From the sequence record PV287706.1: 29,617 bases of DNA. One strand, written 5' to 3'. Each line of letters begins with the position of its first letter. Position 1 is the stretch's first letter. The DNA comes from Escherichia phage Midge. Both the position numbers and the translations under genes were made by a program. Below are positions 187 through 1,952 of the stretch, piece after piece. The notes under the pieces were generated by a model, which ran no database searches, was not told the DNA's origin, and saw only the letters and a program-made list of their open reading frames with translations.

Positions 187-1209
187 TTACTCCGGGTTGT
201 CGAGGGTGTACTCTTTGAACCTGATGACCTCCATGCCGAGCCAGTCGTTTACCTCCCTGAACCTGTCCTGTAGCGGCGACAGCTCGTTACGCACGAATAC
301 CTTTGCCACCTTCTCAACGTCGCCGGTTGAGCCGATATTCTCGGGCTTGCCGCCCATGAGCTGGAACGGCACGCGGTGCGCGTCCATCAAGTCGGCGGCG
401 CTGGCTTTTTTGATGTTGAAAAAGTCATCCTTTGTGGCGACCTCGCTCAACGGCACGATTTTGATGCCGTCCGGTTTTCCACCGGGAGCGTAGAAAAACA
501 GGTTCTTAAAGTTGCCGAGCCCTTTCGAGTTGCGCATCGCCTCGCGCAACGATTCGACGTCGGTCGCGCTCTGCGCCGGGTCGGTCACATACATGATGTA
601 ACCTGCGTGCGCGCCGTTCCGGTAATACTTGAGGCGGAACAACGTCGCGGCTTCATTCAGCCAGGCGGAATTAAGCGCGCTGAGATATTCGGGCAGGCCG
701 TAAATCTCCTGATTAATATCGGGCTCCAGCAGATGAAACACGGTATCAGGCGCGAACTCATGAGGCAGAGTGAAGTTTTCTACAAACCAGAAAATCGAAT
801 CGTCGACCCCGCGCCGGGTATATTTGGCCGGTGAGGCAAGCAGCTTGATTAACTGGCCGGTGACGCTGTGGCGCTGCTCAAGAAAGGCGTTGCCGAATAC
901 AAGATAGTCGAGCGCAAAGCGGCTGAAATCCTGACGGGATAACAGCGGGTGCGGAATGTAGGTGCTCGCGAGTACGTTGCGCTTAACGTAAATCGGTGAG
1001 CTGTGATGTACAGCAGAGCGCAGGCTCTTTGCCAGCCCGGAGAAACTGACCGGCGGCTCGTACCATTTGCCGTTACTGATGCACTCGACGTAATCCAGAA
1101 TGTCGCGCTTATCGAGTACCGGCACAGGCTCGCCAAAGGTGAACGCCTCCATTTTTTGCGGGGCGCTGGCGGTCAGGGCAACTTGTTTGCGTGGCTTGCG
1201 CTTGCTCAT
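187..1209 (-). CDS. Q: Portal protein (P2 gpQ-like)
   Basis: 340-aa ORF; size, position beside the large terminase and cos, and sequence character match P2 gpQ (about 344 aa). Start overlaps the upstream ORF stop (ATGA). Confidence 0.88.
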   Translation of the reverse strand: MSKRKPRKQVALTASAPQKMEAFTFGEPVPVLDKRDILDYVECISNGKWYEPPVSFSGLAKSLRSAVHHSSPIYVKRNVLASTYIPHPLLSRQDFSRFALDYLVFGNAFLEQRHSVTGQLIKLLASPAKYTRRGVDDSIFWFVENFTLPHEFAPDTVFHLLEPDINQEIYGLPEYLSALNSAWLNEAATLFRLKYYRNGAHAGYIMYVTDPAQSATDVESLREAMRNSKGLGNFKNLFFYAPGGKPDGIKIVPLSEVATKDDFFNIKKASAADLMDAHRVPFQLMGGKPENIGSTGDVEKVAKVFVRNELSPLQDRFREVNDWLGMEVIRFKEYTLDNPE

Positions 1210-1952
1210 GCCGCCACCTCACCCGCTGCAACAGCGAAAGACCAGTCGCAGCCAAACAGCATGCGATAATCATCGTCGCTGTATTCGTGTTTAATTTCCT
1301 CGGGCGCAAAGAGATTGCACCCGCGCTGGCATGCTGCATCCAGAGTGACCGACTGACGCCAGACACCATCTGTGCAAAATACGCTGTCGCCGGTATTGAT
1401 GAGCGGTGACGGTCGATGCCTGCGGGTTGTGCCGTTCCATACCCGGAAAGCGTCATGATTATCAGAGGGCGAGGTAAACATCGTCAGGCGGTGGCGCTTA
1501 TGGCAGGCGATAGCCGCCGCGACTTTTGCCGCCCTTAGCGGGTTATTGAACCATGCGAACTCATCAAGGTAGACGTTACCGGCCAGTGCGGCGCAATGGG
1601 ATTCCTCGCCGACAAAGCTGATAACCGCACCGCCGTCGAGCTGCAGGCTGTGGCCGTTGCTCGTCAGACTGACGCCGACGCGCACCGAAAGGTTATTCAT
1701 GTACATCAGCGCCACGCGCGCATGCTCAATATTGTGAGCAAACCAGACCTGATTATCGCCCGTTGTCAGCGCATCGAGCAGCGCCTCACGGCTAAAGAGC
1801 TGCGTCGCGCCAATCTGGCGAGATTTGGTGATGCTGCGGTCGATATTTAGTTTCCCTACCCGCAACCATGTTGTCTGATAGTCAAAGCTGTCACTGTGCA
1901 GAATATCGGCCAATGCCTGAATCTGGCTTTGTGAGAAAACATTATTTTTCAT
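1206..1952 (-). CDS. Terminase large-subunit ATPase-domain paralog (248 aa), inserted between terminase and portal
   Basis: Translation aligns with the central ATPase region of the adjacent 589-aa terminase: shared SF(D/E)YQ, KSRQIGAT, FSREALL-AL-TG-NQ, Y(L/V)DE(F/I)-W, DG-WRQ-VT, GC-LF, D-D(Y/F)--LF-C. Lacks the N-terminal HTH region and the C-terminal nuclease domain. Start overlaps terminase stop (TAATG), stop overlaps portal start (ATGA). Confidence 0.8.
   Translation of the reverse strand: MKNNVFSQSQIQALADILHSDSFDYQTTWLRVGKLNIDRSITKSRQIGATQLFSREALLDALTTGDNQVWFAHNIEHARVALMYMNNLSVRVGVSLTSNGHSLQLDGGAVISFVGEESHCAALAGNVYLDEFAWFNNPLRAAKVAAAIACHKRHRLTMFTSPSDNHDAFRVWNGTTRRHRPSPLINTGDSVFCTDGVWRQSVTLDAACQRGCNLFAPEEIKHEYSDDDYRMLFGCDWSFAVAAGEVAA

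Follow-up and report, generated by a model that had tools for sequence, protein, structure and literature searches.

A predicted stand-alone terminase ATPase domain between the terminase and portal genes of a 186-like phage: gene W, its origins and its possible role

Introduction

The DNA considered here is a stretch of 29,617 nt from Escherichia phage Midge (PV287706.1), hereafter the window, which represents a nearly complete genome of a 186-like phage (Eganvirus), collinear over its full length with the 30.6-kb genome of coliphage 186. Near its start, three successive open reading frames (ORFs) lie on the (-) strand, in the order terminase (589 aa), a protein of 248 aa with an ATG start, and portal (340 aa). 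The middle one (1206..1952, (-)) is a homolog of gene W of coliphage 186 and is called W throughout; its ORF, its Pfam content, BLASTP and a structural model point to a stand-alone ATPase domain of a large terminase. An earlier note on this sequence had singled out this ORF as a real gene placed between terminase and portal, and in this it was right. What would deserve an explanation is the retention, by a phage, of a further copy of its packaging enzyme that is reduced to the motor domain.

The terminase (1952..3721, (-)) is a homolog of P2 gpP and 186 Orf12, with helix-turn-helix (HTH), ATPase and nuclease regions recognized by Pfam Terminase_5, Terminase_6N and Terminase_6C, and annotated in 186 as 'Orf12; P2 P homolog'; it is the parent-type gene of W. 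The portal (187..1209, (-)), a homolog of P2 gpQ and 186 Orf2 identified by Pfam Phage_portal, phrog_68 and the 186 annotation, is the final gene of the operon. P2 itself has no W, and its P and Q are directly adjacent, as the earlier note had said.

Organization of the operon

W is translationally coupled on both sides, and both junctions proposed for it are confirmed in the sequence. The terminase stop and the W start overlap by 1 nt in a TAATG junction (1950..1954, (-); coding strand ...GAGTTTAATTAATGAAAAAT, also given as ...TTTAATTAATGAAA), and the W stop and the portal start overlap by 4 nt in an ATGA junction (1206..1209, (-); coding strand ...GCGGCATGAGCAAG, also given as ...GCGGCATGAGC). 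In SEN1, a 186-like phage lacking W, the portal uses the same TAATG junction (...AACTAATGGGT). A putative Shine-Dalgarno sequence, GGAG, judged from its position only, is located 8 nt 5' of the W ATG (1961..1964, (-)); this site and the TAATG junction serve the portal in W-less phages, and W takes both of them over. The portal of the window would be served by another putative Shine-Dalgarno sequence, GAGG (1217..1220, (-)), read from the sequence within the 3' end of W, where it encodes the ...AGEV... tail of the protein, conserved in the W alignment.

A putative late promoter for the three genes (3744..3781, (-)) is recognized by its homology to the B-protein-activated promoter p12 of 186 (186 3753-3790), and a Rho-independent terminator homologous to 186 tW (164-187 in 186) follows the portal (153..178, (-)), with the inverted repeat GCCGCCAGCATGGCGGC and then a T run on the (-) strand. 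By homology to 186, the operon would be driven by p12, activated by B, and would end at tW. No sigma-70-like promoter beyond chance was found 5' of W.

This arrangement is widespread among the relatives of the window. The order terminase-W-portal is found in 70 of the 78 IMG/VR loci with W and the order terminase-portal-W in 3 of the 78, the remaining loci being cut by contig ends or, in the case of L056 only, rearranged. Further away, all eight distant contexts (8/8) present a terminase, an ATPase-only gene and a portal, in this order. When W comes after the portal, the two genes are not separated by a terminator, and the operon terminator and cos follow W. Since W has no promoter of its own and a constant place in the terminase-portal operon, it is always co-expressed with the packaging genes.

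Some variants of the locus can be mentioned here. One lineage (L011 5001-5738 and L012; also L060-L062) carries the W-like gene after the portal, still within the late operon. The rearranged locus (L056 2461-3747) has W and the portal intact, with the terminase reduced to its last ~100 nt and joined to inverted gpU and gpD tail genes; it represents a defective prophage that has undergone rearrangement, or else an assembly chimera. Production of a P-W fusion by frameshifting was considered as well and rejected: by eye, the junctions differ among lineages without a common slippery site, and one lineage has a 16-nt gap.

A complete ATPase domain

W aligns with residues 125-371 of the neighbouring terminase, with 94/248 identities (38%; BLASTP E 3e-45), a similarity far beyond chance and close to the 'roughly one-third identity' to the central ATPase region that had been estimated by eye. 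Its only Pfam content is Terminase_6N (PF03237; residues 41-237, 84 bits against a cutoff of 22, E 1.5e-23). W is devoid of the Terminase_5 HTH N-terminus, its residue 1 corresponding to terminase residue 125, and has no Pfam match to Terminase_6C, the RNase H-like nuclease domain, so the absence of both regions noticed at first sight is borne out. The boundaries are precise: the N-terminus coincides with the exact start of the terminase ATPase domain, right after the basic linker, and the C-terminus lies ~10 residues past the last conserved element of the domain (LFGCDW in W, LFMCEF in the terminase). Lacking both the HTH region at its N-terminus and a nuclease domain, W is not a terminase.

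The motifs expected of such a domain are present. FDYQ (residues 23-26; 1875..1886, (-)) corresponds to the adenine-binding Q motif and aligns with D141-Y142-Q143 of T4 gp17, with Q26 invariant. KSRQIGAT (residues 43-50; 1803..1826, (-)) is a deviant Walker A aligning with 161-SRQLGKT-167 of T4 gp17, where K43, R45, Q46, I47, G48 and A49 are invariant. NVYLDE (residues 126-131; 1560..1577, (-)) is the Walker B with the catalytic Glu131, aligning with 251-MIYIDE-256 (D255/E256); E131 is invariant in the W family, and D130 is replaced by G in the Yersinia clade. TSPS (residues 160-163; 1464..1475, (-)) represents the C (coupling) motif, its TSP aligning with T285-T287 of T4 gp17 and its S163 being invariant. 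The earlier note had picked out KSRQIGAT and VYLDE, and their aligned counterparts in the terminase are indeed KSRQIGAT and LYVDE. Both W and its parent terminase have Ala at the canonical Lys position of Walker A, with K43 at the start of the motif, and in this they resemble the deviant Walker A of lambda gpA. Among 28 proteins of the W family, the invariant residues are Q26, K43, R45, Q46, I47, G48, A49, Y128, E131, T157, S163, D195, R199 and Q200, and all catalytic residues are intact in the W of the window.

A search by fold was needed, since a W-only profile had no match among PDB sequences and a combined W and P profile gave only a weak match to T4 gp17 (E 0.14), from which the register of the motifs was taken. 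The AlphaFold (AF2) model of W, built on a deep alignment, has a pLDDT of 94.4 and a pTM of 0.92; with 28 close homologs only, the pLDDT was 68, and adding distant paralogs and terminase domains raised it. The predicted fold matches large-terminase ATPase domains, the top Foldseek match being that of T4 gp17 (2o0h; E 1.5e-8, TMq 0.66), followed by the large terminases of D6E, P74-26 (TM 0.60-0.63), PhiV-1 and Sf6. NCBIfam and PADLOC scans of W returned no families (PADLOC at E <= 0.1), and its pI and net charge show no trend toward the loss of positive charge, as regards DNA binding. From sequence and model together, W consists of the entire ATPase domain of a large terminase without any further part, and it is probably nucleotide-binding.

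Identity with gene W of coliphage 186

The window ORF is, with near certainty, the ortholog of gene W of coliphage 186. The product of the 186 gene (AAC34147.1) is also 248 aa long and 94.1% identical over residues 1-239 (tblastn), and both share the C-terminal tail ...WSFAVAAGEVAA. In the GenBank record of 186, the equivalent ORF (1215..1961) bears the name 'W protein' and is noted as 'similar to Orf12', Orf12 being the P2 P homolog. The counterpart in PSP3 is gp2, annotated 'similar to 186 W; similar to orf3', that of EtG is EtG_02, and SW9 is also W-positive. Since the ORF is the ortholog of a protein noted as 'similar to Orf12', the gene, its likeness to the terminase and hence the duplication have been on record since the 186 genome was annotated, and the novelty implied by the earlier note does not stand. 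That note had allowed that the ORF might turn out to be a standard gene with a known role: it is standard in 186, PSP3, EtG and SW9, but it is not universal in 186-type phages, no described role was found for it, and its similarity to terminases is significant. Full-text literature searches found no biochemical role described for W, and the ATPase-only paralog is mentioned neither in a 2024 Eganvirus paper nor in a 2026 survey of 5,945 P2-like genomes.

The names given to these genes are not uniform. Records of W-less 186-like phages of Yersinia (L013 488-1534) call the portal 'W gene', whereas the 186 record (L001 196-1961) gives the name W to the 248-aa ORF. In many records, the ATPase-only gene is labelled 'terminase large subunit', which is functionally wrong for such genes and can mislead terminase-based phage typing and phylogeny.

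An optional gene

Several 186-like phages and prophages have no W, including SEN1, Yersinia pestis phages such as MHG51, FSL SP-004, 613R3 and a prophage of E. coli SA53-3. In these genomes, the portal directly follows the terminase at the same TAATG junction, and both proteins are 96-99% identical to those of W-plus relatives. The W cassette behaves as an indel of 779 nt (1171..1949, (-); blastn against SEN1) comprising W and the first ~13 portal codons, in place of which SEN1 has 60 nt, with homology restricted to 1-1170 and 1950-4000. The family is spread over Enterobacterales prophages, at 73-94% identity in Escherichia, Salmonella, Erwinia, Edwardsiella and Enterobacter, ~50% in Hafnia and Pectobacterium, and ~45% in Yersinia enterocolitica. 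No consistent W-specific signature was seen by eye in the portal across lineages, other than the recombined N-terminal ~19 residues within Eganvirus.

These observations bear on whether W could be an essential component of the motor, a required packaging subunit in 186-type phages. In the 186 record, gene letters are given only to ORFs matching classical genes, and the 248-aa ORF has such a letter while portal and terminase are simply 'Orf2' and 'Orf12', which speaks for a required subunit. The classical late genes of 186 were reportedly defined by conditional-lethal mutants (Hocking and Egan, 1982), and Portelli et al. (1998) are said to have assigned 186 genes; in these works, W is reported to be defined by amber mutants in which head formation was blocked. 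However, a lethal W amber mutation would not prove that the W protein is needed, because the amber would be polar on the ATGA-coupled, overlapping portal gene, and this polarity would suffice as an explanation. Annotators of related phages, moreover, put the name W on the portal. W-less 186-like phages of Yersinia, with their nearly identical terminase and portal, were isolated as lytic plaque formers (PMC11126057). We consider an essential role improbable: W is optional, the terminase is independent of it, and the basic packaging reaction needs no W.

Selection on W

Being optional does not make W a relic. The ratio of nonsynonymous to synonymous substitution rates (dN/dS) among the W genes of the window, 186, PSP3 and EtG is 0.10-0.19, compared with 0.01-0.06 for the terminase and 0.03-0.065 for the portal, so that W is three to ten times more relaxed and still under clear purifying selection. 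Among the IMG/VR W genes, 68 of 71 are intact, at 245, 248, 249 or 254 aa, with 63 distinct sequences, and length and domain boundaries are retained down to 45% identity. The view of an old, diverged gene that stays in frame with intact motifs is upheld by these values.

A decaying, functionless leftover of a partial tandem duplication would agree with the dispensability and rarity of W, as well as with its lower GC content at third codon positions (GC3; 0.64 against 0.74-0.75 in its neighbours). Against it stand the dN/dS values and the number of intact and distinct copies, the domain boundaries kept to 30-45% identity and after several independent origins, and the highly confident AF2 model. 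These signals of selection effectively refute the leftover reading, to which we attach hardly any probability, and W as a dead remnant is excluded.

In the window, GC3 is 0.635 in W, 0.753 in the terminase and 0.739 in the portal, the lower value of W being consistent with a different history or with weaker codon selection. Individual copies depart from the usual lengths. A Yersinia-type W copy (L097 3001-) has 375 aa instead of 254 and may have lost its stop codon or undergone a fusion. In one Hafnia paralvei assembly (L007 3229-5000), the terminase is split into 426 + 159 aa next to an intact W-like gene, and a sister contig (L008 3228-5000) has an intact 590-aa terminase.

Repeated origin and changing motifs

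An exhaustive HMMER scan of 1.84 billion representative proteins retrieved 300 relatives. At 50% identity, ~31 clusters of these relatives are stand-alone proteins of 224-272 aa aligning end-to-end with W, and the rest are full-length terminases. The boundaries of the ATPase-only domain are conserved to 30-45% identity and across what appear to be several independent origins. The W proteins of the window, Hafnia, Pectobacterium, L011, Y. enterocolitica, L019, L026 and L020 form an old clade (bootstrap 95%) that is 33-41% identical to every terminase. For each of four ATPase-only genes outside this clade, the closest terminase is the one encoded in the same genome: L024, 57% identical to its own terminase and <=35% to the best other one (bootstrap of the pair, 100%); L022, 63% and <=52% (77%); L021, 56% and <=50% (58%); and L025, 46% and <=35% (63%). 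Gene conversion was rejected as the cause of this similarity, the identity profiles being even and without near-identical tracts. This pairing represents conservative evidence for repeated origin, because long-branch attraction would instead group the fast W branches together. Independent partial duplications with identical domain boundaries have apparently occurred at least two or three times, and possibly five times. The literature searched contained no description of a recurrent origin of ATPase-only genes.

The motifs have also changed in several lineages. In nine clusters (P0029, P0044, P0046, P0058, P0061, P0063, P0073, P0074 and P0084; loci L073-L095), Walker A ...GAT and Walker B ...DE have become ...GAD and ...[G/S/A/P]E, a coupled change of T50 to D and of D130 to G/S/A/P; KSRQIGAD is found with LGE in 20 viral-contig copies. 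This looks like the relocation of the Mg-binding carboxylate, which would imply that the binding of nucleotide and Mg is being preserved, and it may be one inherited event. The Walker A Lys has been lost from further ATPase-only lineages, which have Q, H, E, T, N or M in its place.

Other features of the window

The window starts 9 nt inside cos and ends with the cos sequence ...GGCGTGGCG, and it is 94% identical to 186 at a -9 offset across its length; over the first 4 kb, its identity to both Erwinia phage EtG and coliphage 186 is 95-96%. Window and 186 differ in the lysis region (7415-8596), the tail fibre (12164-14013), the integrase/repressor region (20425-23752), and at 24391-24915 and 28155-29412. 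In the last of these regions, the SOS operon of 186 (tum, orf97) has been replaced, and a DinI-like ORF is found there (28360-28593, (+)). Two further ORFs (28661-29092, (-), and 29302-29574, (-)) have no Pfam match and lie within the cos-proximal region, which in P2-like phages is a hotspot for anti-phage genes (PMC9122126). The W-less prophage of E. coli SA53-3 has a SIR2-family gene in this hotspot, beside the portal (L017 118-1017). Between the integrase (20975-22024) and the ORF of a CI-type repressor (22394-23236) there is a DUF2511 ORF (22047-22457, (-)); the repressor ORF as listed has 280 aa with an extra N-terminal HTH-like stretch, and its real start may be internal.

Possible roles of W

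The explanation that we favour, tentatively and as possible rather than probable, is that W is a non-essential nucleotide-binding accessory acting at the DNA-packaging step and associating with terminase ATPase domains or their partners. W would be made only late in infection, alongside terminase and portal, and would fold as a nucleotide-binding P-loop domain able to join either the ATPase domains of the genuine enzyme or some partner of this domain. This association would tune the assembly or the activity of the packaging motor, while W itself would neither translocate nor cut DNA. As each new copy would originate from the cognate terminase, it would share at birth the subunit interfaces of the real motor. 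We prefer this accessory role because W is always made with terminase and portal, because its ATP site is kept, and because new copies would start with the interfaces of the terminase.

Several observations weigh against it. W is dispensable in plaque-forming phages (Yersinia MHG phages, SEN1, FSL SP-004). It is also rare: 8 of 5,426 complete E. coli genomes carry it, whereas 1,569 have a P2-type terminase (72 of these 1,569 terminase records are >=90% identical to the window terminase). Its divergence is about twice that of the terminase (45% vs 71% identity between the window phage and a Yersinia phage), and fast divergence and rarity fit an arms-race gene better than a part of a motor. Furthermore, W_L011 is placed beside Hafnia W and P_L011 beside P2/186 P, each with 100% bootstrap, so within the old clade W moves horizontally and independently of the terminase. 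The catalytic Glu has been lost in several ATPase-only lineages (DQ, NE, QD, DH), meaning that hydrolysis would not be universally required for ATPase-only proteins, and there is usually little tolerance for dead subunits in a coordinated ring motor. Finally, co-adaptation of the terminase to W was rejected: of the 590 columns in a terminase alignment covering five W-plus and five W-minus genomes, 26 vary and 0 are diagnostic of the presence of W. The sole protein feature tied to W is the first ~19 residues of the portal, part of the same 779-nt indel.

This last comparison also bears on W as a weapon, that is, a dominant-negative subunit that would poison the terminase of competing P2-like phages or of helper-dependent P4-like satellites; interference with competing phages or satellites had been raised in the earlier note, and this version is weakened here. 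A foreign terminase ring could be capped or stalled by an ATPase domain without a nuclease, the gene is mobile and accessory and evolves fast, and W adjoins the cos-proximal hotspot of anti-phage genes (PMC9122126). However, satellites use the terminase of their helper, so poisoning it would be self-harm, and W has neither a promoter for expression from the prophage nor a PADLOC match. With a terminase of its own that is indistinguishable from that of its W-less kin (0 diagnostic columns) and no lysogenic promoter, a weapon is very unlikely, slightly more so than an essential subunit.

The main rival is a decoy or sponge, in which W would mimic the ATPase domain of the terminase and absorb or block the factors targeting it, protecting the real enzyme; an Avs-type host sensor of large terminases, or a terminase inhibitor from a competing prophage or satellite, are candidate targets. 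Repeated birth from the terminase of the same genome would provide an ideal mimic from the outset. W evolves fast, with nearly all of the divergence on its own branch, is patchily and rarely distributed, is transferred horizontally and is dispensable in the laboratory, and some lineages lose catalytic residues and yet retain the positions that define the fold. It is made simultaneously with the terminase, from a strong portal-type ribosome site, and PDB entry 8dgc, 'Avs3 bound to phage PhiV-1 terminase', a solved structure in which an immune sensor binds a large terminase, is among its fold matches. A prophage inhibitor targeting the terminase, TerI, does exist (bioRxiv 10.1101/2025.02.27.640495). 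Against these points, the strict conservation of the ATP site in the W clade is not obviously needed by a decoy, and there is no PADLOC defence or anti-defence match. In addition, Avs sensors are activated on binding their target, so an extra target could do harm unless W binds without triggering them. A decoy accounts for rarity, horizontal movement, asymmetric fast evolution and tolerance to catalytic loss better than the accessory role does; taking everything together, we regard it as possible but rather unlikely, and the accessory role as the reading still to be preferred.

More generally, and as a conjecture that we regard as possible but rather unlikely, ATPase-only copies of large terminases might constitute a recurrently evolved class of phage accessory genes, arising again and again by partial duplication of the resident terminase and kept either as mimics (decoys or competitive blockers) directed at host or rival factors that recognize its ATPase domain, or as regulatory pseudo-subunits of the packaging ring. 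No such role was found described for any terminase paralog in the literature searched. The comparative picture sharpens the question of why such a copy is kept, as W is optional yet selected, bound to the operon, mobile and apparently re-invented from the resident terminase with the same boundaries. The residual interest lies in the function of W and in the recurrent, convergent origin of such genes, and since 186 is a genetically tractable model with natural W-less relatives, the question is directly testable.

Comparison with known systems

The closest known systems are the orthologs themselves. W of 186, gp2 of PSP3 and EtG_02 have 248 aa, are 90-95% identical to W of the window and occupy the same slot between terminase (Orf12) and portal (Orf2) with identical overlaps, the window presenting no substantive difference other than being a separate isolate. 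When compared with the ATPase domain of P2-type terminases (P2 gpP, 186 Orf12), W is homologous over the entire domain at 34-41% identity, and 41 conserved positions are common to both, those of the Q motif, Walker A, Walker B and C motif among them, whereas W has a 9-residue deletion and varies at 102 positions that are invariant in the terminases.

Regarding proteins that act on terminases, TerI from a Listeria prophage is a small protein targeting the terminase (bioRxiv 10.1101/2025.02.27.640495), and the possible common theme would be only that of a phage-encoded protein acting on the terminase at packaging. TerI is small, expressed from the prophage and accompanied by dedicated immunity proteins, whereas W is a paralog of a terminase domain encoded in the late operon, and the two are not known to be related.

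With respect to fold, the N-terminal domain of T4 gp17 (2O0H) and the ATPase domain of P74-26 TerL (4ZNI-4ZNL) share the fold predicted for W, and W matches the P74-26 domain construct almost exactly in length (~250 aa). However, those domains are laboratory truncations of a single terminase gene, whereas W is a natural, separate gene beside a full-length terminase. The phi29-type packaging ATPases (gp16, asccphi28 gp11) have a related ASCE fold that also appears among the matches of W (5hd9, 7jqp), and like W they are free of nuclease activity, although a vestigial C-terminal domain is kept in them (PMC7672431). These ATPases are the sole motor of their phage, whereas W is a dispensable extra beside a complete terminase.

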